Below are positions 6,947-39,255 of a DNA stretch of 57,058 nt, piece after piece. The notes under the pieces are model-generated. The model had not been told where the DNA came from. It searched no databases and worked only from the letters and a program-made list of their open reading frames with translations. Position 1 is the stretch's first letter; the number at the start of each line of letters is the position of its first letter. The translations under genes were made by a program, and so were the position numbers. The stretch comes from a virus (lineage: Duplodnaviria > Caudoviricetes), in IMG/VR virus record IMGVR_UViG_3300033146_005660, positions 1 to 57,058 of that record; one strand, written 5' to 3'.

Positions 6947-6955
6947 GGCATAAGA
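6947..6955 (+). promoter_or_regulatory. GGCATAAGA motif (putative phage-RNAP promoter)
   Basis: One of five intergenic copies, each at the start of a plus-strand unit; AT-rich context. Confidence 0.65.
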
Positions 6956-7113
6956 TATCTATAGAAAACAAATACTTACATACGATTTAAGAATCAATAC
7001 AAATCAATACAAATCAATCAATAGATTATCAGCTCCATGGCAACCGGGCCCATGGGTCAACGCTGAACTTTGCCCGGAATGCACCCACTTAGATTGGGTG
7101 ACAAGGAGACGTT

Positions 7114-7638
7114 GTGGAAAAGAACGTCAAGACAGTTATGGAGATCGGAATCGGCATCCTCACGGACGACTCTGCAAACATGGAGTCCGTTAAGAACCTA
7201 AGGGACTCTTCAAGCAGGCTAACCACGGACTGGCCATGGGACTGTTCGGTCTACCTCTCCGAAATGATGAGATCCATCGAGCTCCTATTGGCACTCGTGT
7301 TCGATGAACACGGAGAAGACCGAGACAATGATGTCACTGTCATTGTCTCGAAATCGTTCGATGCCATGGCCATACGCGCCGCCGCCAGTTTCCTCGTTGC
7401 CAACGCGCGCCGCCAAGGGTTCTCGGGGAAGAATGTCGATCACGCTGAAAAGGTGATCGCCATGTCGAACACAATCATCAGCGGAGCCAAGTTGATTAGC
7501 ATCGAAGCGGAAAAGGAGGGGGTTTCCACGAGATGGTCCGAACTCGGAAGCTGGAAGAAAAAGTTCCTCGACTTCTCCAACTCCCCCCACGAGGAGCTCC
7601 GAAAATTCAGCAAGCTCCTGAAAGGAGAACGGAAATGA
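7114..7638 (+). CDS. Hypothetical protein, 174 aa
   Basis: AAGGAG RBS, GTG start, coupled to the next gene. Confidence 0.75.
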   Translation: MEKNVKTVMEIGIGILTDDSANMESVKNLRDSSSRLTTDWPWDCSVYLSEMMRSIELLLALVFDEHGEDRDNDVTVIVSKSFDAMAIRAAASFLVANARRQGFSGKNVDHAEKVIAMSNTIISGAKLISIEAEKEGVSTRWSELGSWKKKFLDFSNSPHEELRKFSKLLKGERK

Positions 7639-8474
7639 AACGCATTATCACACATGGTCGCAAGGCTCACCGTGATGACTTCCTGGCCGTGGCGCTCGCC
7701 CTGGCCATCTACGGGGTCATGCCGGTTTTCCGCCGGGACCCCACGGAAGAGGAGCTGGACGACCCCGAGGTTCTCGTGCTCGATGTCGGGGGACAACACA
7801 ACCCTGAACGCAACAACTTCGACCACCACCAATTCCACAAGTCGCACGAGCCCGAGTGCGCGCTCTCCCTGTTCGTGCGCGCACAAGACCTCGAGGACGA
7901 CTTCAAGCTGAGGCCCTGGTGGGAGTTCACCGTGGTCAAGGATGCCCAGGGTCCCAGAGCGGCAGCGAAGACTTTGGGTCTGGATTCCCTGCACGTGGGT
8001 CTCCAGAGTCCTGTGGAGAGCATCCTGCTTCATATGTTCTCCGGGAAGACATGGCTCAGCATCGAAATCACGGAGCTTATGAAAATGTTTGGCAAAGAGC
8101 TCCTCGAGTACACCAAACGGTACGCTCAAGATTACCGCGAGGTCCGTAGCCTCGTGGATATCCAGGAGATCGGAGGGGAGAAAACATTGGTAGCTCATAG
8201 GAGCACGGGGGGAACAATGAACGGTATCCTCGGGAGATACCATGAGCTCGAGCATCCCGACGCAGTGCTCAGCATATCCCCGAGCCCCGATAAAGGTGCC
8301 TCGTGGGCCATCTACCGGTTCGACAGAGCAGATGTCGATCTCTCTCATCTTGAGGGAAATAGCGATATCAAGTTTGCCCACCGAAGTGGGCATCTGGCTA
8401 TTCTCAGGAACGGCCTAAAACTTCAACGAGCCATCGATCTCGCCGAGCTCGCCATCATCTGGGATCGACAATGA
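7635..8474 (+). CDS. MYG1/UPF0160-family DHH-like exonuclease
   Basis: ITH..AHRDD, LDVGG, FDHHQ and FAHRSG motifs; ATGA overlap. Confidence 0.85.
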   Translation: MKRIITHGRKAHRDDFLAVALALAIYGVMPVFRRDPTEEELDDPEVLVLDVGGQHNPERNNFDHHQFHKSHEPECALSLFVRAQDLEDDFKLRPWWEFTVVKDAQGPRAAAKTLGLDSLHVGLQSPVESILLHMFSGKTWLSIEITELMKMFGKELLEYTKRYAQDYREVRSLVDIQEIGGEKTLVAHRSTGGTMNGILGRYHELEHPDAVLSISPSPDKGASWAIYRFDRADVDLSHLEGNSDIKFAHRSGHLAILRNGLKLQRAIDLAELAIIWDRQ

Positions 8475-9691
8475 ACCCGGAGCGACGGCGACGAGAGTAC
8501 GGAAATGCTCACGTGGCATGGTTACACACGGATACCATGTCACTACCGCTTCTCACCGCGTTCATCGGTGAGAAGAACAAGGAAATTTCCCCCCTGCAAC
8601 TCAAGGAGGTTCTCAGGGGGCAACCTCCAAGCGTTCCGGGAGACAAGTTCCTCTGGCAGATATCCATGCTCGTCGAGCACGAGAACCAGACAGAGGAATT
8701 TCTGGAGAGCGAAAACTCCACTTTCTGGAGCACCATGTTCCAGTCTGTCTTGACAGCCCTGGGTAGCACCTTGGCCGCAAGTGACACCCCGAAGTCCATG
8801 CTTAACCACGTGGCGGCCATGCATGTTCACAACACGCACATGAACTACATGGTTCGCAAGAGCGGCGGGCAGACGTTCATGCTCTCCCAGGGTCTCACTG
8901 ACCGACTCATGCTCACGGACGTCGGGCACGCCGACGTAGCGGACGTCCACCTTCCGTTCGACGCCTTTATCCTCCAGATTCCCCGGGGGATGTTCCAAAT
9001 CCGCGACGAGCGAACAGAAGAGCACGAGGTTGATTCGGTTCTGGTCTGCAAAGGCCATAGGCTCGACGGAGAGCGAAAGATCTCACTCCTCATTGGCGGC
9101 GCAGAAAACGAGAACAGCGTAAACATCGGGGATGAGGCCGTGTTCTACTCAAACGTTCTCATGGACAGCGGGACAATCCACGAGAACATTGAGAGGGGTA
9201 TCGACGAGTTCCAGGACGTCCCAGGTAACTACACAGCAGAGGAGGTTCTCAAAAACCTGAGGTCCGGTGAGGTCTCCGGACCGGACTCGTACAGGAAGAT
9301 CGTGAACTTCGTACTCGCCTCCATCCTGTACATCACGGATTTCCCCGAGGACCGCAAGAGGTACCTCGGAGACGAAATTGAAGCACTTGAAGAACGCCTG
9401 AAAAGAAAAGGCGGGAAGGGAAGAAAGAACGCGAAGGCAAAGCTTCGCAGGCTCCAGAGAAAATCCCACGCAGTGCAAATCGTGGGTGCGGACATCGAGG
9501 TGGACTCAAAAATGACGGAGGCTGCCCGTGAGTCCGTTCGTGAAATTAAGGTGTCCTCGTACGTTCGGGGACACCGGAAAATGCAACCCTACGGTCCAGA
9601 GCGTTCATTCAGGAAACCGATCTGGGTCCAACCATACTGGCGCAACCTCGGCAATGAGCCGGTGAAGCGTCCATATCACGTCCAAAAGTAG
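8471..9691 (+). CDS. Phage hypothetical protein, 406 aa
   Basis: Long coupled ORF; C-terminal VRGH..QPYGP..RK.IW.QPYW motif common in phage proteins. Confidence 0.8.
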   Translation: MNPERRRREYGNAHVAWLHTDTMSLPLLTAFIGEKNKEISPLQLKEVLRGQPPSVPGDKFLWQISMLVEHENQTEEFLESENSTFWSTMFQSVLTALGSTLAASDTPKSMLNHVAAMHVHNTHMNYMVRKSGGQTFMLSQGLTDRLMLTDVGHADVADVHLPFDAFILQIPRGMFQIRDERTEEHEVDSVLVCKGHRLDGERKISLLIGGAENENSVNIGDEAVFYSNVLMDSGTIHENIERGIDEFQDVPGNYTAEEVLKNLRSGEVSGPDSYRKIVNFVLASILYITDFPEDRKRYLGDEIEALEERLKRKGGKGRKNAKAKLRRLQRKSHAVQIVGADIEVDSKMTEAARESVREIKVSSYVRGHRKMQPYGPERSFRKPIWVQPYWRNLGNEPVKRPYHVQK

Positions 9692-9701
9692 GAGAAAAAC
9701 C

Positions 9702-10522
<821 letters not shown>

Positions 10523-10523
<1 letters not shown>

Positions 10524-10963
10524 TGGAGGTCATTATCCTCATGGGCATACGGGGTTCCGGGAAAACATCGTATGCCCAATCAAAGTTTCCCAAACACCTA
10601 AGGTGTTCCGCAGACGAGTGGTTCACTGACCGGCACGGAAAGTACAAGTTCCTCGAAGACCAGTTGCCCATCGCGAATGGGTACTGCTTCAGGAAATACT
10701 CACTGTCCGTGGGCCGAATGGATCTCGTTGTTGACAATCCAAACACCCGCCTATGGGAGGTTTCCCCGTACATCGCGTTGGCCGAGAGCTACTCGACCTT
10801 CGTGAAAGTCGTGTTCCTCGATGTCCCCCTGGAGCTTGCGCTGAAAAAAGCGGCGCATCTCCCAGAGCAGATCATCCGGGACCAACACGAACAAATACAA
10901 CAGTCCGTGGACGCATGGCCCGCGGAATTTCCGACACTCGAAATGGTGTCAACAGGAGAATGA
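10523..10963 (+). CDS. AAA_33/N4BP2-like polynucleotide kinase
   Basis: MGIRGSGKTS Walker A, SADEWF, LVVDNPN. Confidence 0.85.
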
Positions 10964-10964
10964 A

Positions 10965-11348
10965 ATGCCAAAAACAAACACAAACACAGACAAAAAATCT
11001 CTCGTCGCCTCGCTGCTCGGGGCATCATTGCTCGCCCTCGGTGCATCCGTCTACGGCATCTACCGCCTTAAGAAGGACAACGAGAAGCAGGTGAAGAAGT
11101 TCGTCAAGGACTACGACCGGCTCAGCGATGAACTCTCGCGGGTGGACATGGGGCGCAACGAGCTCCGCGACGAAGTCCGGGACCTCCGACATTTGCTCGA
11201 CAACGAGCGCCACCTGACCATAGGGGAATTGACAGACAAGATGTCGAACCTCGTTCTCCAGATGGAAGTGGAGAACGAGGTCTCCGAGAAGCGTCAAAAG
11301 GTCAAGGGCAAGATCTTGGAGTTCGTCTCCAAGATGAGCACCAAGTAG
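10965..11348 (+). CDS. Membrane-anchored coiled-coil protein
   Basis: AGGAG RBS; N-terminal hydrophobic helix followed by a heptad-rich region. Confidence 0.75.
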   Translation: MPKTNTNTDKKSLVASLLGASLLALGASVYGIYRLKKDNEKQVKKFVKDYDRLSDELSRVDMGRNELRDEVRDLRHLLDNERHLTIGELTDKMSNLVLQMEVENEVSEKRQKVKGKILEFVSKMSTK

Positions 11349-11370
11349 ACAGCTAGACCACGTCCTACAT

Positions 11371-11404
11371 GAAGAGCGTTAACCACACGCTCTTCTTTAG
11401 CTAT
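11371..11404 (+). terminator. Hairpin + TTTAGCTAT terminator motif
   Basis: GAAGAGCGT-TAACCAC-ACGCTCTTC-TTTAGCTAT. Confidence 0.7.
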
Positions 11405-13110
11405 CAGTATCTCCCTTGGGAAATCATCCCCGCCAAGCGAGAGTAGATCTGAGAGTGCATGGCGTCATCGGGCTGGTCGATGGGGTGATCGTAATACATG
11501 GTCTTCTGGCGCTCGTTGTAGTCGATGTACACGCCAAGCGTGTCCTTTGCGAACCTCGCGTACTCCTCCCATCTCGCGTACATGATCTGTTGATGCTTGA
11601 GGGCATCGATGTAGTTAGAGATCGCCATGGAACGGTTGACCTTGAAGTTGAAGGCCAGGTCGTCCCATTTGATGCGCTCGCGCATCTTCCCCACGTAGTT
11701 GAATTCCATCACGCGCTGACGACCAAGCTTATTGATCAGATGGCTATTCATCCCCCAGCCATGACCATAGTCGACGCCCAAGATTTTCACGTTGAACCGG
11801 TGGAACAGGCGAACGATGTCCTCCTTGACGAACTCCGGGTCAATCTCGGCCCCCTCATACTTTTTGATAAAAAACGGCCAGAAGAGGTCTTCATCGAGAA
11901 AAGTCCCGATCGTTAGGACCGTGAAGGATGCATGCCGCTTCTTCCCCCCGACAACCTTGCCCTCGGACCGACCCTCTCCCCAGTCGACACCGCCAAAGTT
12001 GTCACGTCCGAGGAGCTCGCGGTACGGCTCGAGAATAAGGTGCTCCGAGTCGATTCCGCTCTTCTTGTTGATAGGCCAGCAGCACTGCATGATTTCCGTC
12101 TGAGTAACAGGCTTCGATGCTTGGTCGTGGCTCTCCCCGAGGACCTCGTTATAAAAGACGGCTGGAGGCCAGTTGTCTCGCTTCCAGACAATGTCCTTTT
12201 TCCAGCGATCCCCGCCTTGCTTCCAGGGGACCATAAGCTGCGTAACATGGAATCCCGTGTACTCACCGCCCGGGTTGGTGACCACCCATCGACCTTCTTC
12301 GGGATGAATCCTGTTGCCGCACTTTCCGCAGATAAGTCCATCGTTCCCGATGTTATCGAGGCCCAGGACGTTCCAGTGGATTGGTGTGTGCATATTGCAG
12401 GGAATGGCCCACTCCATCTGGGTCGACCACTGCCAATACTCCTCGATGGTGTTGTCCAGCGTCTTGGGCGTTCCCGCGTAGAGTTCGTATGCGTACTCAG
12501 AGAAGCTCAGAGACTCCGCAATGACTTTGACGTTGTCCTTGAGTATGTCCTGTATCTCATCCAGGTAAAGCCTGTCAGCGGGGATACCACGCGCTCTGTC
12601 AGCGGACAGGAAGGCATAACGGAGGAAAATGTGCGCGGCGTTCGTGAACGTCTTCTCGTAGACCTGGTCAATGCACTTCTTGTCCGTGAAGTGGTCGTGA
12701 ACGATCGGAGAGTCATTGATAGTCGGCGTCAGCTTCTCATTGGAAAACTGGCGGGTCTGCATTGAGCTCGGGCTCACATACAAGGTCCTGAATGCCTCGT
12801 AGACAATGGACTCGGCCACCATGAGGTTGGCCAACGTGGTCGACTTGGCTACCTGCCTTCCACACTTGAGGATGGTGAGCTGCGTGCTCGAGTCATAGAC
12901 GGGGAGGAAGAACCTGTGCTGATCTAATCTTAAAGGCTTCCTACGGTGCACCAGGAGGGCCTGAGCCACGCTTGACCTTGTAGCGCTGATGATCGTCTTC
13001 TTCTTCCCCTTGTGCCTCCCAGTCCCGTGTATGACCTTCCTGCGAGCAGGAAACTTCCTCCCATCATCTTTTTTGTCAAATTCGGACTGATCTTGTAAAC
13101 TCATTTCCAT
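11404..13110 (-). CDS. terL: Terminase large subunit
   Basis: GRQVAKST Walker A, LYLDEIQD Walker B, GTPKT motif III, GVDWG and PDDAMH nuclease motifs. Confidence 0.9.
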   Translation of the reverse strand: MEMSLQDQSEFDKKDDGRKFPARRKVIHGTGRHKGKKKTIISATRSSVAQALLVHRRKPLRLDQHRFFLPVYDSSTQLTILKCGRQVAKSTTLANLMVAESIVYEAFRTLYVSPSSMQTRQFSNEKLTPTINDSPIVHDHFTDKKCIDQVYEKTFTNAAHIFLRYAFLSADRARGIPADRLYLDEIQDILKDNVKVIAESLSFSEYAYELYAGTPKTLDNTIEEYWQWSTQMEWAIPCNMHTPIHWNVLGLDNIGNDGLICGKCGNRIHPEEGRWVVTNPGGEYTGFHVTQLMVPWKQGGDRWKKDIVWKRDNWPPAVFYNEVLGESHDQASKPVTQTEIMQCCWPINKKSGIDSEHLILEPYRELLGRDNFGGVDWGEGRSEGKVVGGKKRHASFTVLTIGTFLDEDLFWPFFIKKYEGAEIDPEFVKEDIVRLFHRFNVKILGVDYGHGWGMNSHLINKLGRQRVMEFNYVGKMRERIKWDDLAFNFKVNRSMAISNYIDALKHQQIMYARWEEYARFAKDTLGVYIDYNERQKTMYYDHPIDQPDDAMHSQIYSRLAGMISQGRY

Positions 13111-13142
13111 TACTTTCCGTTTTTTTTTGTAATGTAGCTACG

Positions 13143-13239
13143 TCAAAAAATATATAAGCCTTCCAGTCTCAGATCTTTTCCACAGACACTCTCTCTCGTA
13201 GAAAACGCTCAGAAAACCAAACCTTATATATTTTTTTGA
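13143..13239. repeat. AT-rich inverted repeat in the intergenic region
   Basis: TCAAAAAATATATAAG (13143-13158) versus CTTATATATTTTTTTGA (13223-13239). Confidence 0.8.
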
Positions 13240-13367
13240 TTTTCGTTGAAATCATTGAACAACTACATATTCCGACATGTAGCATATGTGTTCCATCTTA
13301 CCTAAAAAGAGATGAAAGCAAGTGCTCACAACAGTAAAAAGTGAATACCCCCTAAAGTGGTATACTT

Positions 13368-14219
13368 TCAGTTCTCGGTGTCGGATAGTTCTTCCAATGT
13401 GGGGAACTGTGGTTCTGTAAAGTCGAACCGTAACTGCAACTCCTCATCGAGATCCATGTCCGAGTCATTGGTGAACCGAACCTTCTTCTCTCCGGCAACC
13501 ATGGCCATGGTCGCCCATCGTTGAGCCATTGGGTCCATTAGCGGGACGTCGACGAGGTTCTTGAACTTGTAGTAAGAGCTCACCATGATGTCGTTCAGGA
13601 TGGCCTCGTAGCTGATCGACGGGGTAACCCCTAACGTTTGCTCAATGAACTCCCTGGAGCCCCCCTCGCGCCCTATGAGGAGCTTGTTTCGCTCCTCCGG
13701 GGATACCCCCCTAAGAAGACCCCTCCAGTCCCGTGGGCTCATCTTCTTGAAGTTGAAGAAGTAGGCCTGCCCCCGCGTTATGACATCATGGTCGATCACC
13801 CGGCTGAATCTGGTGAGAAACGTTGACACGATGTCATCGTGGTCAAAGTCCCTCATCAGCAACAAGGACATGGCTGTCCGGTAGCGTGGGTCTGAGAAGA
13901 TATCAAACGCGTCTTGAAGCGCCTTTGAATCAGTCGTGAGGACCCTGTGGGATGTTTTTATGAACTCCGGCTGGAGCTCCCACATCTCCCTGATTCCGTG
14001 GGATTCGGTCCAGTCGATGAAAGCCTTCTTGGAAGCTATCTTGTCTGACTTGGATTTGAAGTAGGATCGAACGGCGGGGGGAAGGTTTCCGGAGAAGAGA
14101 TTCTTGGACAGAAGTTCATTCTCTGTTAGTTCCGGAAGTCCAAGGCTTTGTAGTGTCCCGTTGACATCGGCCTTTCTCGTAATGAGAAACGATATGAACA
14201 GGTCGTATGGGTAACGCAT
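13368..14219 (-). CDS. Hypothetical protein (possible terminase small subunit, by position only)
   Basis: 283-aa ORF directly upstream of terL. Confidence 0.7.
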   Translation of the reverse strand: MRYPYDLFISFLITRKADVNGTLQSLGLPELTENELLSKNLFSGNLPPAVRSYFKSKSDKIASKKAFIDWTESHGIREMWELQPEFIKTSHRVLTTDSKALQDAFDIFSDPRYRTAMSLLLMRDFDHDDIVSTFLTRFSRVIDHDVITRGQAYFFNFKKMSPRDWRGLLRGVSPEERNKLLIGREGGSREFIEQTLGVTPSISYEAILNDIMVSSYYKFKNLVDVPLMDPMAQRWATMAMVAGEKKVRFTNDSDMDLDEELQLRFDFTEPQFPTLEELSDTEN

Positions 14220-14228
14220 AGTAAGAAT

Positions 14229-14237
14229 ATTTTACCA
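14229..14237 (-). promoter_or_regulatory. Extended -10 element TGGTAAAAT
   Basis: TGn-TAAAAT ending about 10 nt upstream of ATG 14219. Confidence 0.4.
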
Positions 14238-14244
14238 TATTCTA

Positions 14245-16275: not shown

Positions 16276-16283
16276 GATGGCTC

Positions 16284-17462: not shown

Positions 17463-17471
17463 GCCATAAGA
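17463..17471 (+). promoter_or_regulatory. GCCATAAGA motif (putative phage-RNAP promoter)
   Basis: 1-mismatch copy at the start of a plus-strand island. Confidence 0.6.
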
Positions 17472-17516
17472 GAACTATTGTAGGGCGCATTTAGCGCAAA
17501 ATCTAAAGGAGAAGTC

Positions 17517-21425: not shown

Positions 21426-21434
21426 GGCATAAGA
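21426..21434 (+). promoter_or_regulatory. GGCATAAGA motif (putative phage-RNAP promoter)
   Basis: Intergenic copy about 170 nt upstream of a TTTAGCTAT terminator. Confidence 0.6.
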
Positions 21435-21439: not shown

Positions 21440-21605
21440 ATGTATGGGCGGTTTATCCACCACAGTGCACTTGCTAGGACTGTTGTGAATGACCGGACTA
21501 TCACCTTGGTGATGGCCGCCCTGAAGAAGAGGCAGGACCCCTCTTCGGGAACGCCATCGTCAAGGCCTACACGAGGGGGGTTATCCCCCTCTGTGTTTTA
21601 GCTAT
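21440..21605 (+). ncRNA. Candidate small structured RNA
   Basis: Lies between promoter and terminator motifs; long irregular hairpin at 21504-21565; no RBS-supported ORF. Confidence 0.45.
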
Positions 21606-29494: not shown

Positions 29495-29503
29495 GATTTT
29501 CTT

Positions 29504-29512
29504 GGCATAAGA
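29504..29512 (+). promoter_or_regulatory. GGCATAAGA motif (putative phage-RNAP promoter)
   Basis: Copy 10 nt from the RNAP start codon, facing the opposite way. Confidence 0.65.
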
Positions 29513-29548
29513 GGATTGTAAGAGAACAACCTAACCATGGAGATAATC

Positions 29549-29683: not shown

Positions 29684-29749
29684 TTCTCACCCCCTGGCAG
29701 GTCCTCCTTCCTGCCAGGGGGCAACTTATTTTACACTGAGAGGAGCGGT

Positions 29750-29998: not shown

Positions 29999-30024
29999 TA
30001 CGAGAACCGATACAAATACTGTAG

Positions 30025-30056
30025 AGGGGGAGTTTAGAACTCCCTTTTTTAGCTAT
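30025..30056 (+). terminator. Hairpin + TTTAGCTAT terminator motif
   Basis: GGGAGTT-TAG-AACTCCC-TTTTTTAGCTAT. Confidence 0.75.
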
Positions 30057-30517: not shown

Positions 30518-30884
30518 CGATGGCCTCCTTATCCTTCTGGTGGACCTTCTCAAGCTCCTCGATTTTCCCGTCGATGACGGCAATCTTGTTCTTGGACCTC
30601 GAGACGTCGAGCTTGAGTTCCGAGACCAGTTCATCGTTTTTTTCCACCTTGGAGGTGGCCACCTTGTTGGCGATCTCCAGGGATCTCACGTTCTTTTCGT
30701 GGCGGAGCTTCGCGAGCTCCCTAGACCTCCGGCTGGAGATCCAGGCGAACACGAACATGCCAACCAGGGAGACAAGGAAGAGCACAACCCCCGTTATGGC
30801 CCCGATGTGGCTGTCCTTGCCGTTCTTCTCTTTCTTCTTCGCCGAGAAAGACTTGAGGCTCTCAAGGAGTTTGGAGGGTTCCAT
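30489..30884 (-). CDS. TM + coiled-coil protein (possibly i-spanin-like)
   Basis: One TM helix, then a coiled coil; overlaps the downstream gene. Confidence 0.55.
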   Translation of the reverse strand: MEPSKLLESLKSFSAKKKEKNGKDSHIGAITGVVLFLVSLVGMFVFAWISSRRSRELAKLRHEKNVRSLEIANKVATSKVEKNDELVSELKLDVSRSKNKIAVIDGKIEELEKVHQKDKEAIDAISGWDDI

Positions 30885-31390
30885 TAGATAGCGCCAAGAC
30901 TCGAACCGGACAGGCCGCCAATGGCAGCCCCTCTGAGAATGCGACCGATCAGAGCCTCAAGGTCGTTGTGGTCATTGTCGGACGTTCCCGCTGCGATAGA
31001 CCCGCCGGCAATTGCTCCCGTGATGGCACCAGGGGCAACAAACGTCGACAATGTGGGTCGTATCTTTGGATCGTTAAAGCTTACGAACTTTGCGGCCCCT
31101 CCCGAGATCCCCGACGCGATGGCACCGCCAATCCCGCTACCAAGAAGGGCGCCCTTGGCCGCTCCGCGAATAGGATTTTCCCCATCCTTGGCTGCTCCAA
31201 TCGTGCCACCAATGATCCCACCAATGGCTGCGCCGGGAATACCAGATTCGAGGGCAACCGCCGTGGCGTTGACAGCGTTTGGCACCCTCTCGAAGGTATT
31301 CCAGGTTTTTTCAAGGTGGTCCATTGTCTCGCCGAGAAGCCCGCTGACCTTCTCGAGCTCATCACTGAATCCGTTGAGAAAATGGTTCAT
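30884..31390 (-). CDS. Glycine-zipper protein with the shared leader
   Basis: Starts MNHFLNGFSDELEKVSG; repeated GxxxGxxxG helices. Confidence 0.75.
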   Translation of the reverse strand: MNHFLNGFSDELEKVSGLLGETMDHLEKTWNTFERVPNAVNATAVALESGIPGAAIGGIIGGTIGAAKDGENPIRGAAKGALLGSGIGGAIASGISGGAAKFVSFNDPKIRPTLSTFVAPGAITGAIAGGSIAAGTSDNDHNDLEALIGRILRGAAIGGLSGSSLGAI

Positions 31391-31391
31391 T
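31341..31391. repeat. 51-bp direct repeat encoding the shared leader (second copy 31868-31918)
   Basis: CCGCTGACCTTCTCGAGCTCATCACTGAATCCGTTGAGAAAATGGTTCATT is identical at both sites. Confidence 0.95.
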
Positions 31392-31917
31392 ATTCCCCTG
31401 CCCTTTTGGCGCCTCTGCGCCATGCCTTGCTGTTTTCTCTTCTGTAGTAACGTGGTAGATATTTTTCTTGCATTCTCTGCATATAATATGGTTCTTGGAA
31501 TATATCAGTTTCCTTTGAATAACCTCTCTTTAATCTCCCGTGAACATCGAATTTGCTGAACCTTCTGTAGCCTTCTTTTATATCTCGACGTCTGACATCT
31601 TTACTCCCAATTCTCCGCCTGTCAGCACGAAGTGGGCGATGCGCTTTCTCGGCATCATTCTTGATTCTCTTTCTGTGACTGCCAAACAGATGTTTTGTCT
31701 CATCTCGTGTTGCAGTGAACTCCTCGGACTTAATTTTGCCGGGCTTGGTGATGCGCCTCTTGATGACCCCAGGACGCCTCCATGCACGTTCCTCGGCGCG
31801 TTCAACGACCTTCTTTGCCTTGGACGCAACACCAGATCTACGAACAAGTTTTGCGACATCTTTGAGTCCGCTGACCTTCTCGAGCTCATCACTGAATCCG
31901 TTGAGAAAATGGTTCAT
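31390..31917 (-). CDS. Highly basic protein with the shared leader
   Basis: Starts MNHFLNGFSDELEKVSG; the rest is very R/K-rich. Confidence 0.75.
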   Translation of the reverse strand: MNHFLNGFSDELEKVSGLKDVAKLVRRSGVASKAKKVVERAEERAWRRPGVIKRRITKPGKIKSEEFTATRDETKHLFGSHRKRIKNDAEKAHRPLRADRRRIGSKDVRRRDIKEGYRRFSKFDVHGRLKRGYSKETDIFQEPYYMQRMQEKYLPRYYRRENSKAWRRGAKRAGE

Positions 31918-31921
31918 TGCC

Positions 31922-32533
31922 CTACCCTTTGTGCTTCTGCGCCCGACCAAGGAGATCCATGAGCTCCCGTTCGGACTTCATGAGCTTCTTGCTACCCGCA
32001 AGGCGGCCGGCGAGACCGCGGCTGCCAACACCCCTTCGTGCCATTTGAATCGCCAGGGGAACGCCAGCACCGCCGACGCCAACACCGGCGCCAGCGACAG
32101 CACCTGCGAGATGTCCAACTCCCGGCGTCATCGCTCCGATCATGCCACCTGAAATAGCGCCTTCGGCTCCCAGGACAGGAGCTGCAATTGCTGGATATTT
32201 GTTCCAACCAAGCAACCTGGAAATCGGGAACTTGCGTTTGTCGAGGCCCCGGAACTTCCCGGCCTTCGCGTCGGACACGATCTTCTTGACCGTCTCGCGG
32301 ACGGCCGCACGGCTTGTCCCTTGCTGGGCAGCAAGAAGCTTCTCGAGAACCCTTCGGTCACTGCGCTTCAGAGAGCCCTTGAGGAGCCTTCCGGAGAGAC
32401 CTCGGCTCTCAATGTACCTGGGGAGTCCTCCGAGCATCATGGGGTTGTACCTGGACGTCATTGCCCGTGAAATAGAATTGAACTTACCGATCTTCTCGAG
32501 CTCGTCAGAAAATCCGTTGAGGAAGTAGCTCAT
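31922..32533 (-). CDS. Basic, Gly-rich protein with the shared leader
   Basis: Starts MSYFLNGFSDELEKIG. Confidence 0.75.
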   Translation of the reverse strand: MSYFLNGFSDELEKIGKFNSISRAMTSRYNPMMLGGLPRYIESRGLSGRLLKGSLKRSDRRVLEKLLAAQQGTSRAAVRETVKKIVSDAKAGKFRGLDKRKFPISRLLGWNKYPAIAAPVLGAEGAISGGMIGAMTPGVGHLAGAVAGAGVGVGGAGVPLAIQMARRGVGSRGLAGRLAGSKKLMKSERELMDLLGRAQKHKG

Positions 32534-32559
32534 TGGTCTCTCTCTCTCTCGAGGGTTGT

Positions 32560-33102
32560 TTAGGAGTGCGCTTTGCCGAGGATACCGCGTTTGACGAAGT
32601 CATTCGCGAAGGCCATGAACGGACCAGAGGTCAGGACGGCAATGGCAGCCTCCCAGCTCACTCCCCCACCGAACTTGGCGAGCAACATGGCGGCCATGCT
32701 CATGACGCCCACGGTGATGTACGCCCAGCGTCGACCCATCTTCTTGAAGAGCTTCAGGAGCTTCAGGATGAACATGATCAACCAGATGATTCCCGCGCTC
32801 ATGAGCCACCAGTTTTTGGCCTGGCCGGAACGGAACGTGCTCTTTGCCAGATCGACGGCCCCCGTGATGTCCTTGGGGACGCTTGAGGGGAGCGACGTGG
32901 GGGCAACCTTGACCTTCGGGTTCTTGACCGTGACCTTGGACGTTGCCTTGACGTCCTTTGCGGGCTTCGCGACAGCGGGCTTCGCGACAGCGGGCTTCGC
33001 GACCTTTGTCGCCGGTTTGACAACGGGCTCCGAGAGAGCAGGCGTTGCCCACCCGGTTATGGCCATGGCGATCACTGCGATGTAAAAACGTTTCATCTTC
33101 AT
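32560..33102 (-). CDS. Membrane protein (signal peptide, AKPAV repeats, about 3 TM; possibly holin-like)
   Basis: AGGAG RBS; start MKMKRFYIAVIAMA. Confidence 0.65.
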   Translation of the reverse strand: MKMKRFYIAVIAMAITGWATPALSEPVVKPATKVAKPAVAKPAVAKPAKDVKATSKVTVKNPKVKVAPTSLPSSVPKDITGAVDLAKSTFRSGQAKNWWLMSAGIIWLIMFILKLLKLFKKMGRRWAYITVGVMSMAAMLLAKFGGGVSWEAAIAVLTSGPFMAFANDFVKRGILGKAHS

Positions 33103-33109
33103 TCTCCTG

Positions 33110-33412
33110 TTATTTGTGAAAAGATCCCTCTGGCGGGTCTGTCTCTCTGTCTTCTTTGTCCCACCAGGATACCACAATGAACCACTGATCGGTCCTGACC
33201 GATGAGCCGTCCTCTTCACGCACCTCAGTGGTTTCCGTGAGGTCGTGAATGTTCTCAATCGTAATACCGCTTCCGCGCATGTTCGACTTCGTTCGAAGAC
33301 TCTCGTACTTGATTCGATCCTCGTTGTGGGAAATATTGAACTTCTTGATATGAAAAGTTCCCAGGAACACACCCGGCGTCGGAATACGCAGGGGGCTTAC
33401 TTTTGCTGCCAT
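33110..33412 (-). CDS. Hypothetical protein, 100 aa
   Basis: Fills the gap between portal and the next gene, same strand. Confidence 0.7.
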   Translation of the reverse strand: MAAKVSPLRIPTPGVFLGTFHIKKFNISHNEDRIKYESLRTKSNMRGSGITIENIHDLTETTEVREEDGSSVRTDQWFIVVSWWDKEDRETDPPEGSFHK

Positions 33413-33421
33413 CGTATTTTC

Positions 33422-35422
33422 CTAGACTGGAGAGTTTTCTCTTCGTGGTGGTAGTTTCTCAGGAAGAGGCTTCATGGCGTCAGCCGCCGCACCACCTGGT
33501 GGTGTCATCCCGATGTATTGCATGACCACGCGGTGCATGTTCGGCATTCGCGACTGGAGATCGGCCATAACGGAGGACCTCTGCTGCGGGCCCATGCCCA
33601 TGAGCTTGGTGGCCCAGCGCTTTGCGATCTTGTCCACGTCCAAGCTCACCACGTTCGCTTGCTGTGATGTCGCTTGCGCATCTTGAGGAACCTGGTCATT
33701 GGTGCTCTGAGCTGAGGCCTGTTGGGCCATTTCACGTTCCGCGCCCTGCTGCCCCTGTTGAGGTGGCTGGCCGCCCTGCTGCTCCTGGGGCTGTCCTGGT
33801 CCCTGCTGACCCTGGGGTTGACCCTGGGGTTGACCTTGTTGCTGCCCTTGCTGTTGCTGTTCCTGGGTCTGGACGCCGCTGGCGTTGAGCTGCTCTTGCA
33901 TCTGCTGCTGAGCCTTCGCCTGAGCCTCCTGCGCCTTCACCTGATACTTTGCGGAGGCAATCTGAGACTCGCCCTGGGCCTGGGCCTGCGCCTTCATCTG
34001 GAGCTCCTGAAGCTCCATCTGTTGTTCGATCTCGGAACGAATGATCTTCTGCTCCTTGTCGTGATCGAAACCGAGCTCCGTGAGCAATGTCTTTGTCGAG
34101 ATCTTTTGTGCGGCGTTGAGCTGGATGACAAGCTGCTTTCGCTGCACGTCATCCGCCATCTTGAATTCGGTGAACTTGAGGTCAATGTTCGGGATGTTGA
34201 ACTGGGTGACAATGTGCTTCTTGACGAAGTTGACGAACCGCATCAACAGCCGTCGGTACATCAGAAAATGGTTCTCAAGGGTTCGCAGGGAAATGCTCGA
34301 ACCACTCCAGCTCAGGCCACCAAACACGAACTCGATGGGAACCCCCATGCCTCCCGTGACCTCTTTGTTGGTGATCTCTATCTCCGGTCCTAGCATGAGC
34401 GCCCGACCGTCACCGCCGAGCCTCTCGAAGCCCAGGGGTACGGGAACCACGGAGATGTAGTTCGGGTCCGTCTTCCACTTGCCGATTTCCCCCTGAATCC
34501 TCTCGGACCAGGTGTGGAGGTTGACGTGTTGGTACGGGTCCTGGCTCGAGTTGCTCTGGGGGAAGATGAACTCCAGGGGCAAGATGCGCTGGAGGGCAAT
34601 GGCTTCCTGGGCACGCCTGAGGACATATAGATAAAAAAGACGCTTCATGGAGTGCAAGATCAAGGGTTTCCCCCACCCCTGGTCCTGCTCGGCGAGCGTT
34701 GGCCTCTTGAAGTGAAAGAGGTTCTTTTTGCTGAGGATGATGTCCTTGTTTTCCTTGACCGCCTTGATGAAGATCCACGGCGTATCCGCGACGATGTCAC
34801 TCTTTCCCTGCTGAATGGACCTTCGAACCTTGTTGGGGACCCTATAACGGTATTTCGATCGTCCGGTCATCGGGTGGAATTGGATGTCTATATTCTTCGG
34901 GTCCCATCGGATGAAGTTCATCTCGTTGATGTTCTTCACCGGAACATCATGGACCTTCCCCTGGACCTGCTCCTTGCAGGATGGGCATGAGTAGTTGAAT
35001 GCGTAGTTTTTGAACTTGTACTTGATGCTCTTGACATCACACTTGTGACCGCATTCCGGGCATTCGAGGATGCGCTTGAACGGCATGTTGATGGAGATGA
35101 AAGCGTTGCCGAACGTGAAAAAGTCGAGACCAATCTCTATCAAGAACGGCTTGATATCCAACGTCTCCTCAAGGATGTCTTTCCACTTGTTCCGAACGTT
35201 CTCATCCTCGTCGTTGTACACAAAGTCCGTGACCGGATACTCGGCGATCTTGTAGACAACGGAGCCAATCAACGGGTCCGTGTAAAAAAAGTATGCACAC
35301 CACTTGAGGAGTTCCTTAACGGTCGGCGGCATGTAGCTTTGTGCTACGTCAAAGAACGGGGACGGATAGATGAGCCCCCTTCTCCGGTCGTGACCGCCTT
35401 GGGGCGTTGTGGGATCTGCCAT
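33422..35422 (-). CDS. Portal protein with a zinc-ribbon insertion and Q-rich tail
   Basis: Portal-like pattern (FGNAFI, RWDPKNI, FHFKR..GWGKPLI, GMGVPIEFVFG); CPECG..CPSC insert. Confidence 0.8.
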   Translation of the reverse strand: MADPTTPQGGHDRRRGLIYPSPFFDVAQSYMPPTVKELLKWCAYFFYTDPLIGSVVYKIAEYPVTDFVYNDEDENVRNKWKDILEETLDIKPFLIEIGLDFFTFGNAFISINMPFKRILECPECGHKCDVKSIKYKFKNYAFNYSCPSCKEQVQGKVHDVPVKNINEMNFIRWDPKNIDIQFHPMTGRSKYRYRVPNKVRRSIQQGKSDIVADTPWIFIKAVKENKDIILSKKNLFHFKRPTLAEQDQGWGKPLILHSMKRLFYLYVLRRAQEAIALQRILPLEFIFPQSNSSQDPYQHVNLHTWSERIQGEIGKWKTDPNYISVVPVPLGFERLGGDGRALMLGPEIEITNKEVTGGMGVPIEFVFGGLSWSGSSISLRTLENHFLMYRRLLMRFVNFVKKHIVTQFNIPNIDLKFTEFKMADDVQRKQLVIQLNAAQKISTKTLLTELGFDHDKEQKIIRSEIEQQMELQELQMKAQAQAQGESQIASAKYQVKAQEAQAKAQQQMQEQLNASGVQTQEQQQQGQQQGQPQGQPQGQQGPGQPQEQQGGQPPQQGQQGAEREMAQQASAQSTNDQVPQDAQATSQQANVVSLDVDKIAKRWATKLMGMGPQQRSSVMADLQSRMPNMHRVVMQYIGMTPPGGAAADAMKPLPEKLPPRRENSPV

Positions 35423-35437
35423 AATGTGTTCCCGTTC

Positions 35438-36994
35438 TTAGATGATGGGCTTGTCCATGACCGCTCTCTGGGTCACGAACGCGCCGCCGGCGTACATGTA
35501 GATTTTTCGTTTTTCTGCAGGGGACAAGGCGTCCCATCCGCCGCTCGACCACTTGTCATGAATGGAGCCCAGGGATGGCTTGTTGGCGATGTCACCGGGT
35601 GTCGTGCCCTTCGGGGGACTCTGGGGGTCCCTGTGCGGCGGCGGGGTTCCCGGATTCTTCTGGTTCTGGATTCCCTTGGGATCGTACTTTGCCGACTCTC
35701 CCGCCGAAGCAGCGTTTCCGCTCTGACCCTTTGCGGCCTTGCGGGCTCCAACGTCTTTTTGTTCCTCGATGGTTTTCAGGATACTCTTGCCGTCTCGGCG
35801 TATTCTCTGGTTGTTGTAGCCGCGCGTGTGCTCCATGATCGCCTTATGTTCCGGCATGGAATGAGCTTTAGCGGCAGCTTCAGACTGGGTCATTGTCGGC
35901 GTTCCAGACGACCGACCCGCTTCTGCTTCACCCCGTGCTTCACTCATGTTGCTTTTCGGAACGTTTGATTTTTGCGTACTTTTATTCGGTTGAGGCGTGT
36001 TTGTCGTCTCATCGACCTTCGGCTTCGGTGGTGCCTTGGTCTCGATTTTTCTGGTCCCCCCATGCTCACCGTACATCTTATGGAGCTTGCCAGTATGTCT
36101 TTCCTCGATACGCTTGAGGTCCGCGATGTTCTTCTCGGTCGCCTCGGCCTGTGCACCAAGGCGAATTCGTCGGGGATCCGTATTGCTCAGGGGTGCGAGC
36201 TTTTTGTTGATCTTCGCCAGCTCCGCCTCGTTCCTGGCGATACCCGCCTGCGCGCGACTTACAGAACGCGTGACATCCCGGGCGATCGGTGCGTTGTAAC
36301 GACCTTTGATCTGGCGACCAATGGAGCCAACGCCTGTCTTTATGCCGTGAAAAAATCCACCTTCTCTCCCTGATTTTCGTCCTTCCCTGATTGCGCGACG
36401 AACACCAGATCCTACCGGTGTGCGCCCATGGACTTTGAGTGCTCTGATGTGCGAATAATTTTTCGAGGCACCGTTGGCGCCGACTTCAATATCTCTCAGT
36501 CTTTTGAGTTTACTTCCGGAGATTGAAGAAACTCGGGCGCCTGTCCGGAAACCGCTTGCAAGACTCCCAACGCCCTTGCCAATCCTCTTTAGGCCCGTGA
36601 GCGCCCGTCCAATCGCAGAGACGTTGACCGCTTCTTTGCCGAACGATGGATTCAGGAGGTCAGCGGAGATGGAGTCCGTAAGCAACTGAACCTGACTGTC
36701 ATCCTGGGGTTCCGTGGCGTTGATGTAGGCCACGGCGACCTTGGTCATCCCTGCAGGCTCGTTCTCGGCCATGACCGCCATGGACTCCAAGAGGCCCTCG
36801 TAGGAATCGGCGCTCTGAATGTCAGACGCAGTCTTCTCGAGGTCCCCGGGGCGCTCGTTGATGATCAAGTACGCGAGCTTCTCGTGAAACGAGAACTCAG
36901 CAAGGTCCCTCTCGTTGTTGACAGGAAGCACGTCAGAGAAGAACGTCTCGCTCTCCTCTTCAACCAGATATCTGAAAGCCCCTAGCTTACCCAT
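35438..36994 (-). CDS. Putative internal head protein (acidic N-terminus, basic remainder)
   Basis: EKLAY, EKTAS, TKVAV and GKEAV motifs in the acidic N-terminal region. Confidence 0.7.
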   Translation of the reverse strand: MGKLGAFRYLVEEESETFFSDVLPVNNERDLAEFSFHEKLAYLIINERPGDLEKTASDIQSADSYEGLLESMAVMAENEPAGMTKVAVAYINATEPQDDSQVQLLTDSISADLLNPSFGKEAVNVSAIGRALTGLKRIGKGVGSLASGFRTGARVSSISGSKLKRLRDIEVGANGASKNYSHIRALKVHGRTPVGSGVRRAIREGRKSGREGGFFHGIKTGVGSIGRQIKGRYNAPIARDVTRSVSRAQAGIARNEAELAKINKKLAPLSNTDPRRIRLGAQAEATEKNIADLKRIEERHTGKLHKMYGEHGGTRKIETKAPPKPKVDETTNTPQPNKSTQKSNVPKSNMSEARGEAEAGRSSGTPTMTQSEAAAKAHSMPEHKAIMEHTRGYNNQRIRRDGKSILKTIEEQKDVGARKAAKGQSGNAASAGESAKYDPKGIQNQKNPGTPPPHRDPQSPPKGTTPGDIANKPSLGSIHDKWSSGGWDALSPAEKRKIYMYAGGAFVTQRAVMDKPII

Positions 36995-37191
36995 TTCGGA
37001 CCTCTTCCTCTTCCGCGCGTTGGATCGAGCTCGTAGATGCGGTCTGCGTCCTTGTCGAGCTTCTTCATGGCCTCATTCAGGAGGTTATCACGCGAGTTCA
37101 GTGCGGACACGTAGATGTTCCTTGCGCAATCCAGGCAAACCGGTGGAACGCCGACAATGACGCCATCCTTACCGCAAATGCTGCACTTCAT
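36982..37191 (-). CDS. Small zinc-finger protein
   Basis: CSICG..CLDC. Confidence 0.65.
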   Translation of the reverse strand: MKCSICGKDGVIVGVPPVCLDCARNIYVSALNSRDNLLNEAMKKLDKDADRIYELDPTRGRGRGPKWVS

Positions 37192-38051
37192 TTTTTAGCC
37201 CTGAGGAGCTCCTTCTTTACCCGAAGGTACTCTTGGATGACCAGCATTCTCGAGACATAGACCTGAACGGGGTCTTCCTCGTTGAGCTTCGCATCCGACA
37301 GGTCTGCGTTCTTGTCCTTAATCACCTTCCAGGCCGCTGAGAAGTCCGGAACGGTCTCGACGGTCTGATTCTGCTTGTCAACGAGAGACTGCACGGGACC
37401 GAACCAGTTTGATGGCGCGTAGACAATCCCGTTCGACAGACACACGGATGCAATGTACCCGAGCACCTCGTCGGAGAACTTGACTGGATCGATATCCCTG
37501 GAGGCGTTGATTTTCTTGAGAATCTCGATTGTGAACGCGGTCTCGTGGGGGTCGAGAGGTTGCATTTGCCCGAACACGGGGACGGTGTCGTTCAGCGCCC
37601 GCCCAACGTTCTCGAACGTCGTCCAATCCTTCCACGGGAAGTCCGTAGAGAGCGCCACGGAGAGCGCTTGGACCTTGTTCTTGTTCACCTCGCTGATAGC
37701 CCCAACGTCTTGGCGGACAGCCTGCCATAACGTTTCGGGGAGCCATTCGGTCCAGTCGTCGTCGTACAAGGATTTCAGGTAGGCCAAGAGCGCTAGGGGG
37801 TGAATGTCGTCCCTGGAAAACGTATTGCTTGGAACCTCGATGACCGTGGACTTTGTTGAGTTCAGGACCTTTCGCGTACGGACGGGTTCCCGGGGCTGCC
37901 CCTCCTGCTCCTCGACTGGAGCCTGCGCAGCCTGCTCCTCAAGCGTGTCAAGGCTATCAGGCCTCTCCACCTCGAGCGCAGCAATGCTCTCAGGGCTCAG
38001 CTCGGAGCCCTTGAACATGCCCTCCAGGAACAGCCTGTCCGCGGCGTTCAA
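37188..38051 (-). CDS. Hypothetical protein, 287 aa
   Basis: Coupled ORF in the head module. Confidence 0.8.
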   Translation of the reverse strand: MNAADRLFLEGMFKGSELSPESIAALEVERPDSLDTLEEQAAQAPVEEQEGQPREPVRTRKVLNSTKSTVIEVPSNTFSRDDIHPLALLAYLKSLYDDDWTEWLPETLWQAVRQDVGAISEVNKNKVQALSVALSTDFPWKDWTTFENVGRALNDTVPVFGQMQPLDPHETAFTIEILKKINASRDIDPVKFSDEVLGYIASVCLSNGIVYAPSNWFGPVQSLVDKQNQTVETVPDFSAAWKVIKDKNADLSDAKLNEEDPVQVYVSRMLVIQEYLRVKKELLRAKK

Positions 38052-39163
38052 ATCTGACCCTTGGCAATCTGCTTGACGACCACCTTGTCGGGGTCCGGAA
38101 GGCTATTGAAGATCTCGATAGCGTGCGCCTTGAACTGATTCTGGAACGCCTCGCCGAAGTGACTTCGAAGCTTGTCGGAGTTCGCGGCACTCTTGAGGTC
38201 ATCCCCCGTTATGGTCTCCCCGTCAACGTCCTCGTTCCACATGGCCGTCTTCTGGGGGGCCATCGAGCTCTCCCATGGGTCCGTGATGTGCTTTCCGTAT
38301 TGTCCATCGAGACCCGCTTGCTTGTCGAACTCGTAGAGGGCGCTCGCGAACGTGTCGGGGTCCGTGCTCTCCGCGAGTTCCGCGAGCTTGTCGAGAACGC
38401 CAAGAGCCTCGTTGCTTCCATCGAGGAGGGTTCGTCGTTCGTTCAGGTGATAGGAGAGACCCTGGTTCCATCCACCGGATGCCCATTTCTGGAGATACGA
38501 AGTGTCGAGGTCGACATTGAGCTCGCCGGCGCGGCGAATTACGTTCTCGGCGAACATGTGCCGGTGTTCCGGGGACAGGTCACGTGCGTACTTCTTGAAG
38601 TACGAGGCTGCGATCTTCACATGACTTTCATCGGGCATTCCATACTTCCGAATGGTCTCGCCCTCGTTGTCGAGCAATAGCGCGTACTGGTCATCCGGAA
38701 CCTCCATACGCGCGCTGATGTCCCGAGAAGCCTCTTTGGTCATCTCGAGCTCTGCGTACTTCTCGTACTCGTTCCTGACGCCCTCTTCGACGATATTGCT
38801 GAAGAAGCCATTGGCAGCATACTTGGAGATCGCCGGATCGGCCTCGATCTCGTAGGCATCGCAGGCCTCTCTGATGTGCGTCGCGGCGCATACCCGTTCG
38901 GCGGCCGACAGGTTCTCGTTGGCCTCCTCGAAGTACATCGAGGCCAACTTGATATGCGCCTCGTCGTGAAGCGGAAACTTGCGAATTTTCCCCGCTGTCT
39001 TCGTGATGACAACGAGAGCAAAATCCTCGTCCAAGAGATCGTTCACCTGCCCAGGGGACAGGACTTCGGCGCTCCTCCATGGTCCGAGATCTTGGGCCAT
39101 CTTCTTCAGATAGCGCCTGTCAGAGTCATCGTAGAAATCAACAACGTGTCCAGGAATCGGCAT
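38048..39163 (-). CDS. Putative head morphogenesis protein with two DUF6582-like repeats
   Basis: IRKFPLHDEAHIKLA and IRKYGMPDESHVKIA internal repeats; GAGGTG RBS; 13 K-x-A motifs. Confidence 0.7.
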   Translation of the reverse strand: MPIPGHVVDFYDDSDRRYLKKMAQDLGPWRSAEVLSPGQVNDLLDEDFALVVITKTAGKIRKFPLHDEAHIKLASMYFEEANENLSAAERVCAATHIREACDAYEIEADPAISKYAANGFFSNIVEEGVRNEYEKYAELEMTKEASRDISARMEVPDDQYALLLDNEGETIRKYGMPDESHVKIAASYFKKYARDLSPEHRHMFAENVIRRAGELNVDLDTSYLQKWASGGWNQGLSYHLNERRTLLDGSNEALGVLDKLAELAESTDPDTFASALYEFDKQAGLDGQYGKHITDPWESSMAPQKTAMWNEDVDGETITGDDLKSAANSDKLRSHFGEAFQNQFKAHAIEIFNSLPDPDKVVVKQIAKGQI

Positions 39164-39187
39164 GTTTCACCTCTTGCGGATGCGATG

Positions 39188-39217
39188 AGGGTATCAAGTT
39201 TGAACCATAAACGTCAA
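39188..39217 (-). promoter_or_regulatory. Sigma70-like promoter
   Basis: TTGACG-N18-TACCCT with TGn extension, upstream of the head operon. Confidence 0.45.
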
Positions 39218-39246
39218 GCATTTCGCGCGTTTTTACGGGTTTTTTG

Positions 39247-39255
39247 GGCATAAGA
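39247..39255 (+). promoter_or_regulatory. GGCATAAGA motif (putative phage-RNAP promoter)
   Basis: Copy at the start of a two-gene plus-strand island. Confidence 0.65.

Follow-up and report, generated by a model that had tools for sequence, protein, structure and literature searches.

A GnYATAAG-type word, very probably a promoter, shared by tailed phages with a cell-like beta/beta' RNA polymerase

How does a phage that encodes its own cell-like RNA polymerase direct that enzyme to its genes? The question is raised by IMG/VR record IMGVR_UViG_3300033146_005660, a tailed-phage sequence (Duplodnaviria; Caudoviricetes) of 57,058 nucleotides that we analysed in its entirety and refer to here as the 'window'; it is a linear fragment with an estimated completeness of 31% (CheckV). 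Its minus strand carries a gene for a fused beta/beta' multisubunit-type RNA polymerase (Pfam matches: Rpb2_6, 1.4e-60; Rpb1_5, 8e-28; Rpb1_2, 5e-24, among others), together with genes for the large terminase, a portal-like protein and tail-fibre-like proteins. A first-pass annotation had picked out the word G(G/C)CATAAGA (GSCATAAGA), held that it heads every plus-strand island, and read it as a candidate promoter at which the fused enzyme drives early genes. We conclude that the word very probably does have promoter function; it would belong to a promoter type, GnYATAAG-N5-YR, used clade-wide by phages with a cell-like, often fused, beta/beta' polymerase. In the literature searched we found no description of how the enzyme of this clade finds its genes.

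The window holds five exact copies of GSCATAAGA, at positions 6947, 17463, 21426, 29504 and 39247, all on the plus strand, against an expectation of 0.42; a count reached by none of 100 shuffled sequences. All five lie between open reading frames (ORFs; our own calls), where intergenic DNA makes up 11.8% of the window, giving a chance of about 2e-5 that every copy would be so placed. Our recount thus recovers the five co-oriented intergenic copies reported at first pass, and a check of how often the word falls inside genes or on either strand found the exact word on the plus strand only. Relaxing it to GNYATAAG yields six copies on the plus strand and none on the minus; allowing the 9-mer one or two mismatches brings no enrichment (102 copies against 114.6 expected), indicating that the word is sharply defined.

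Aligned on the first G of the motif (offset 0), the sites are strongly conserved over some 16 bp. The core G-n-Y-A-T-A-A-G is present at all five, preceded at offsets -7 to -1 by the T- or AT-rich run that the earlier annotation had described, and followed on its 3' side by K-A-A-n-T-R, so that offset 13 is always T and offset 14 always a purine; at the position of a -35 element there are no conserved columns. In the promoter that we propose, the 9-mer would form the core from -14 to -6, comprising G-14, S-13, the hexamer CATAAG at -12 to -7 and A-6, with transcription starting 14 nt past the first G, at a purine that follows a T (T-1/R+1) and lies seven bases after -7. The start sites given for the window (Table 1) are predicted from this geometry.

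The placement of the copies is equally consistent. All five are on the strand opposite to the polymerase gene, none being on the same strand, and the copy at 29504 is 9 nt from the polymerase start codon. Three sit in divergent gaps, at 9 (29504), 18 (17463) and 84 nt from a minus-strand start codon; distances so short that they leave no room for another upstream promoter. Scans for sigma-70 promoters over 1–7200, 6000–25000 and 28500–41000 gave no plus-strand promoter-like site at the five motif positions. Each promoter would drive a short plus-strand unit whose genes are non-structural; the units lie within the minus-strand structural and polymerase blocks and diverge from them, and those headed by the motif end in hairpins. 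The assertion that the motif heads every plus-strand island needs trimming, however: each copy does head a plus-strand unit, but the plus-strand coding region at 1–6922 has none, and the copy at 6947 sits within that plus-strand block.

The same arrangement is seen in cultured phages. A protein search of a phage collection with the window polymerase returned Vibrio phages D181, D148 and D69 (98% query coverage, 30.7% identity) and Salmonella phage Arash (31%), the enzyme of Arash being split into two genes in contrast to the one fused gene of the window. In both Arash and D181 the polymerase gene is on the forward strand, and in both the pattern GNYATAAGNNNNNYR occurs 32 times on the reverse strand, with one forward copy in Arash (controls: 5 reverse, 3 forward) and four in D181 (controls: 6 reverse, 8 forward). 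The most repeated 12-mer of the Arash genome is the reverse complement of the motif; GGTATAAG alone is found 30 times on the reverse strand and once on the forward. Across these 30 Arash sites, with the consensus tGGTATAAGtAaagTGTAaa, offset 13 is T in 26 and a pyrimidine in 29, whilst offset 14 is a purine in all 30. The promoter words of the two phages, GGTATAAG-N5-TR in Arash and G(T/C/G)TATAAG-N5-YR in D181, have in common with the window the core G-n-Y-A-T-A-A-G, the pyrimidine-purine (Y-R) step at offsets 13/14 and often identical flanks, as illustrated by a near-identical pair of sites, GGTATAAGAGAAGTG from Arash and GGCATAAGAGAAGTA from the window. The window differs from both in that position -12 is C instead of T and position -6 invariably A; the Arash sites also have a weak word at the -35 position.

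In the window, Arash and D181 alike, the copies are opposite to the polymerase/structural strand and head small islands next to the polymerase gene. Three reverse-strand islands of Arash that lie beside its two polymerase genes (gp203c, gp211c–207c and gp214c) have one copy each, 35–55 nt upstream, and between 56.5 and 70 kb all six copies stand 20–155 nt upstream of co-oriented genes in the deposited annotation (five coding sequences and one tRNA), the 5' end of the tRNA falling six bases past the predicted start. The literature searched yielded no description of the Arash/D181 promoter word, and 'promoter' does not occur in the available part of the Arash paper (PMC10585845).

Uncultured relatives widen this picture. 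The protein search with the polymerase gave homologues at 62–69% identity (P0002–P0004, P0007 and P0008), whilst scans of IMG/VR, JGI metagenomes and GTDB genomes gave relatives at 45% polymerase identity or less, or none; the DNA comparisons cover relatives at 45% identity or less. In one of these (G001, an IMG/VR genome of 113 kb with a polymerase 41% identical to that of the window) there are seven copies of GGSAAAA-N14-GKTATAAG, all opposite to the polymerase strand, with none on the forward strand and none for a reversed control. One of the seven is divergent to the polymerase gene, like the 29504 copy, and another heads an SSB orthologue, like the 17463 copy that heads the SSB unit of the window; the G001 sites carry the word GGCAAAA at the -35 position.

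A set of 40 relatives was then compared, each retaining 150 bp or more upstream of the polymerase start (41 were listed, of which L038 was dropped for too short an upstream sequence; the partial or low-identity loci L051–L052, L054–L062 and L064–L095 and the duplicates L003 and L005–L009 were left out). Within 300 bp upstream of that start, GnYATAAG is found on the opposite strand in 18 of the 40, compared with 0 of 40 in the same-strand control. Among 19 upstream sites, 18 have Y-R at offsets 13/14 (T-R in 17), the other offsets examined scoring between 0 and 7 of 19. The motif signal in relatives is therefore clear, if not universal, and the word recurs in Salmonella and Vibrio phages and in uncultured relatives of 35–69% G+C. 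In all relatives the polymerase gene is co-stranded with portal, terminase and other conserved genes of the structural module. Start-codon contexts such as CATGGCTAAG, which came up in de novo k-mer counts in the relatives, were rejected as coding artefacts.

To what class of promoter does the word belong? It is not a canonical sigma-70, sigma-54 or phiKZ/AR9-type promoter, and probably not a T7-type one. A canonical host sigma-70 promoter has a -35 hexamer 16–18 nt upstream of a -10 hexamer that ends in T; beyond the missing -35 columns, the last base of the hexamer here is G at all five sites; the G of an extended -10 element is present in five of five and the T preceding it in three. A sigma-54 promoter has GG and GC elements whose first bases are 12 nt apart; the window sites have GG at offsets 0–1 in four of five, but read CT, CT, GT, TT and GT at offsets 12–13. 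The view, taken at first pass, that the motif fits neither sigma-70 nor sigma-54 spacing thus holds as regards the unusual sequence, the missing -35 and the lack of a sigma-54 GC element, but gives way on one point, namely that the -10/extended -10 geometry is that of the sigma-70 family. Among the proteins scanned in this fragment of about 31% there was no gene for a single-subunit polymerase of the T7 type, whose promoters have a conserved word of about 20 bp across the start, compared with the roughly 16 bp of strong conservation seen here.

In their '-10 only' appearance the window sites look like the late promoters of T4, which likewise have a single extended -10-type element of about 8–9 bp, no -35, and a divergent phage protein of the sigma family (gp55 in T4; a putative one here). 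T4 late transcription employs the core enzyme of the host along with gp33 and the sliding clamp, gp55 being a minimal sigma, and its promoter consensus is all A/T; the present case differs in that the phage supplies a beta/beta' enzyme of its own. With phiKZ and AR9, which have virion and non-virion multisubunit polymerases (PMC7824862), the window shares a phage-encoded relative of bacterial beta/beta', which those phages carry in the virion for early genes, and short promoters near the start that lack a -35. The phiKZ/AR9-type enzymes have split subunits, and the group 1 polymerase-encoding jumbo phages are without a sigma factor (PMC7824862); the window, by contrast, has a single fused gene of 2078 amino acids, of a cell-like and often fused type, with a sigma-70-family gene in its relatives and classical sigma-70 geometry at its sites. 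The mReC (multisubunit RNA-polymerase-encoding Caudovirales) of Weinheimer and Aylward 2020 (PMC7481178) are metagenomic tailed-phage contigs in which cell-like beta and beta' occur beside genes for portal, terminase and capsid; the window fits this description. Neither 'promoter' nor 'sigma' occurs in the available text of that paper (PMC7481178).

The most likely reader of the motif would be the phage polymerase with a sigma-70-family factor, likewise phage-encoded, bound to it. Such an unusual word, recurring across hosts and across 35–69% G+C, argues that whatever reads it is encoded by the phage. Candidates for the factor are found in the relatives: Arash gp10 matches Pfam Sigma70_r3 above the cut-off (9e-9; the r2 match is weak), and Sigma70_r3 matches occur in four of the five relative records searched, including D181 and both of the 100%-complete IMG/VR relatives. 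In three of these four records the best match lies about 11–12 kb into the record, on the polymerase strand, and the ORFs underlying the best match of each record align with one another. A second protein with sigma-70 region 2 is present in Arash (W01:120974–121165, plus strand) and in D181 (W02:133683–133856, minus strand), where it is on the motif-driven strand; its presence would be compatible with a sigma cascade.

As regards the enzyme, the polymerase gene lies on the structural strand, where the gene of a virion component would be expected, as in N4 or the crAss-like phages. In the liquid chromatography–mass spectrometry data for Arash virions, the polymerase beta subunit gp206 is the most-detected protein, with 3516 spectra, alongside beta' (gp216) with 1210 and gp10 with 467 spectra and 100% coverage (PMC10585845). 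The enzyme may travel in the virion, in which case the motif-headed units would be transcribed first, without the host enzyme. Taken as a whole, we consider it reasonably likely that the phage enzyme, carrying a phage sigma-family factor and possibly injected, begins transcription of the non-structural units at the motif; the identity of enzyme and factor, and the timing, we infer from the relatives only. The original proposal that the fused beta/beta' enzyme reads the motif is in this respect plausible, by way of the clade-wide conservation, the sigma gene of the relatives and the detection of both in Arash virions (PMC10585845), although the link is an indirect one.

Several points weigh against this account. 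The exact 9-mer of the window has no match in the first three relative loci, L002 and L003 included, and near the polymerase gene the word is not found in 22 of the 40 relatives. Pooling 44 loci (1.01 Mb), the full pattern occurs 53 times on the opposite strand and 19 times on the polymerase strand (reversed controls, 27 and 19), the opposite strand being richer in 24 loci, poorer in eight and equal in 12; a moderate strand bias. The more distant loci L002/L003 have a different intergenic word. Nor was a sigma gene found in the window by tblastn and phmmer searches with Arash gp10, by six-frame Pfam searches for r2 and r3, or with a profile of four sequences, a result that is uninformative rather than negative for a fragment of about 31%. 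The geometry is one that any sigma-70-family holoenzyme uses, and three of the five window sites have TG at -15/-14, so that a host core enzyme, or even host sigma-70, might be involved; a phage sigma on the core enzyme of the host would leave an identical picture in the sequence. The Arash authors allow that the virion polymerase is either for the start of infection or a carry-over of abundant proteins (PMC10585845). Finally, our literature search found no transcript study of this phage or of any relative, and a look through sequencing runs listed none of RNA and one of DNA, which contained 6% of the words sampled from the window.

Two further observations bear on these points. The intergenic word of L002/L003, TAGTAAT(A/TT)AGAGTAAA, lies in two places, 9958–9975 and 17815–17838, one copy being just upstream of the polymerase gene and on the same strand; it may be a promoter variant of their own. 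The cultured relatives have genomes of 180–187 kb, by which measure about two thirds of the genome of the window phage is missing (about 125 kb by the CheckV estimate), and this stretch is the probable location of the sigma gene and of most of the strand driven by the motif.

The strongest competitor has just been touched upon, namely that the motif is a promoter for the host core RNA polymerase, redirected by a phage sigma akin to gp10, with the phage polymerase serving another class of promoter. T4 gp55 and SPO1 gp28 are precedents for a phage sigma on the host core, the architecture is typical of the sigma-70 family (G-14, a -10 hexamer, and transcription beginning 7 nt past -7), the clade conserves phage sigma genes, and the second sigma-like gene of Arash and D181 would suit a sigma cascade acting on one core enzyme. 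Set against this, a complete phage beta/beta' enzyme is conserved together with the motif, and the phage polymerase would be left with no evident class of template, an objection softened by the existence of a second candidate class (TACAAT in the window and TAAAATA in Arash; see below). Beta, beta' and gp10 were moreover detected together in Arash virions (PMC10585845). On balance we regard the host-core explanation as unlikely.

Very unlikely, in our estimation, is an ordinary host sigma-70 promoter of the extended -10 kind, well conserved by chance. The sequence YATAAG does agree with the TATAAT consensus at four to five of six positions, and T-G stands at -15/-14 in three of five window sites and 18 of 30 Arash sites. 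T at -7 and at -12 are, however, among the best-conserved contacts of sigma-70, whereas here G-7 and G-14 are invariant (five of five window and 30 of 30 Arash sites), as is C-12 within the window; the window sites also have no -35 element and are listed by no sigma-70 scan, and the same unusual word is present in Salmonella and Vibrio phages and uncultured relatives that range so widely in G+C. Least probable of all is that the motif is no promoter and instead binds a regulator, governs RNA processing or stability within a longer transcript, or acts as a strand-specific signal in the DNA, for example a nick site: the single-strand placement of all copies would fit nick sites, and the same genome holds a second strand-specific 12-mer, but the 9 and 18 nt to the divergent start codons at 29504 and 17463 leave no space for another upstream promoter, and both the position-specific Y-R at 13/14 (18 of 19 sites in relatives; purine in 30 of 30 in Arash) and the 20–60 nt spacing to ribosome-binding sites, start codons or a tRNA 5' end are features of promoters. 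The candidate-promoter reading is strongly supported, then, by position, orientation, the downstream Y-R and conservation in relatives.

If the plus-strand units are started at GnYATAAG, what serves the opposite strand? The word TACAAT occurs seven times in the window, always on the minus strand, and three of the seven are in the three divergent gaps (17482, 29520 and 39284), facing minus-strand blocks, among them that of the polymerase gene; where a motif site has no divergent gene, as at two of the five, TACAAT is absent too. At four divergent junctions of Arash, TAAAAT(A) is found on the structural strand, adjoining the motif. Together these suggest a separate -10-like, perhaps late, promoter class for the structural/polymerase strand. 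At 17463 and 29504 the box overlaps the conserved start of the plus-strand promoter (T-1 R+1 T A in Arash) and may thus in part be a by-product of it; should it be a true second class, promoters overlapping face to face could exclude each other. The 12-mer CCCCCGTTATGG was rejected as a minus-strand promoter: its copies are inside genes and away from block heads, with no Y-R at the required offset. More tentatively still, and with rather less confidence than in the account of the reader given above, one could imagine that the clade runs a complete bacterial-type system of its own, in which beta/beta' and sigma are packaged and injected, transcription starts at GnYATAAG, G-7 represents a new sigma specificity, and TACAAT/TAAAATA provides an early-to-late switch.

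The promoters of the window, the features that bound their units and the facing TACAAT boxes are collected in Table 1. The P1 unit opens with a 153-nt leader, followed by ORFs from 7114 to 11348 that include an ATPase/kinase-like protein; just 3' of the promoter, the leader contains three tandem, iteron-like repeats of AATCAATACAA at about 7005–7045. The P2 unit (17517–21419) includes SSB (18840–19292) and a DUF5131 protein (19692–20585). P3 heads a unit of some 160 nt (21440 to about 21600), strongly structured (fold z = -3.3), that is either a small structured RNA or a leaderless ORF of 53 amino acids. In the P4 unit, a very acidic ORF of 48 amino acids (29537–29683) comes first, and the P5 unit consists of two small ORFs (39314–39577 and 39588–39857) and then a hairpin at 39864–39900. 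The doubtful sixth copy has no Y-R at offsets 13/14. With SSB, the acidic 48-residue protein and the small RNA or leaderless ORF among their contents, the units plausibly represent early genes, as the first-pass annotation had it; in Arash the same promoter type heads a tRNA and DNA-metabolism genes too.

Table 1. Predicted promoter cores, unit ends, facing boxes and polymerase gene in the 57,058-nucleotide window
Feature	Position	Strand	Remarks
P1 core GGCATAAGA	6947..6955	+	-14 to -6; predicted start 6961
Hairpin followed by TTT	11371..11395	+	end of P1 unit
P2 core GCCATAAGA	17463..17471	+	predicted start 17477
TACAAT box	17477..17482	-	faces gene 16284–17444; overlaps P2 start region
P3 core GGCATAAGA	21426..21434	+	predicted start 21440, the A of an ATG
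Terminator-like hairpin followed by T-run	21573..21591	+	ends P3 unit; inside 3' end of minus-strand gene 21567–22298
Fused beta/beta' multisubunit-type RNA polymerase gene, 2078 amino acids	23258..29494	-	Pfam
P4 core GGCATAAGA	29504..29512	+	divergent to polymerase start codon, 9 nt off; predicted start 29518
TACAAT box	29515..29520	-	about 20 nt upstream of polymerase start codon; overlaps P4 start region
Terminator-like hairpin, 12 pairs	29690..29721	+	after first ORF of P4 unit
P5 core GGCATAAGA	39247..39255	+	predicted start 39261
TACAAT box	39279..39284	-	upstream of gene 38048–39163
Doubtful weak sixth copy GATATAAG after T-run	55051..55058	+	antisense inside gene 54371–56743

Promoters peculiar to a phage and serving transcription machinery that the phage encodes are known already. 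What this case adds is the consensus, found to be conserved over a large clade that is mostly uncultured, and a cell-like beta/beta' paired with a sigma-family factor. The clade is abundant in metagenomes, and deep phylogenies have drawn on its polymerase as a marker (PMC7481178). The motif would link that enzyme to a sigma-family partner, unlike the sigma-less enzymes of the phiKZ type, and Salmonella phage Arash and Vibrio phage D181, both in culture, allow the question to be put to the test. For annotation, it marks the starts of units, small RNAs and tRNA promoters in these genomes, and it could yield an orthogonal set of polymerase, sigma and promoter for synthetic biology.

Homologues of the window polymerase numbered 2190 with E <= 0.001 among 7999 candidates scored, their length being mostly about 2000–2100 amino acids among the 120 listed. 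Many fused homologues (P0005, P0006, P0009, P0070 and others) reach 2400–2950 amino acids and contain intein or LAGLIDADG domains (PF14890, PF14528), and the polymerase gene of D181 is interrupted by homing-endonuclease genes. At the nucleotide level, positions 17000–30000 of the window gave no megablast match in the phage collection.

The window contains no tRNA by ARAGORN, and across its whole length no Rfam family reached its gathering score, the region 1–3700 giving only weak hairpin look-alikes. Within this region, 200–3510 is rich in G+C (0.60–0.65) and of low coding potential, with perfect tandem duplications of 105 nt (209–418) and 40 nt (3430–3509) and with structured segments that recur in as many as three diverged copies (837–1066, 2102–2419 and 2999–3291). 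Two of the segments end in a sequence resembling a tRNA T-arm (1021–1066 and 2374–2419), and terminators formed of a hairpin and T-run lie at 2338–2372 and near 3250–3291. Further along, an AT-rich gap of 257 bp (13111–13367) upstream of the terminase gene has an inverted repeat with TATAAG reading both ways (13153, plus; 13228, minus), each copy lacking the G at -14; this could be a variant promoter pair, or a site related to an origin or to packaging.

The 12-mer CCCCCGTTATGG is present in five exact copies on the plus strand (21794, 26371, 30788, 38203 and 50146) and none on the other, with a degenerate copy near 15458; no equivalent is present in Arash. Read as RCCATAACGGGGG on the minus, coding strand, each of the five falls within a minus-strand gene, the genes being unrelated, and in the same frame, so that it encodes (A/T)-I-T-G-x; in the polymerase this is the conserved ITGG near the beta/beta' junction. 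A signal at the DNA or RNA level, such as a pause or nick site, is possible. Four small minus-strand genes (30489–32533 and 22246–22299) share a conserved 5' end (repeat families D1 and D4) and form a family of paralogues, the first of which, at 30489–30884, also carries this 12-mer.

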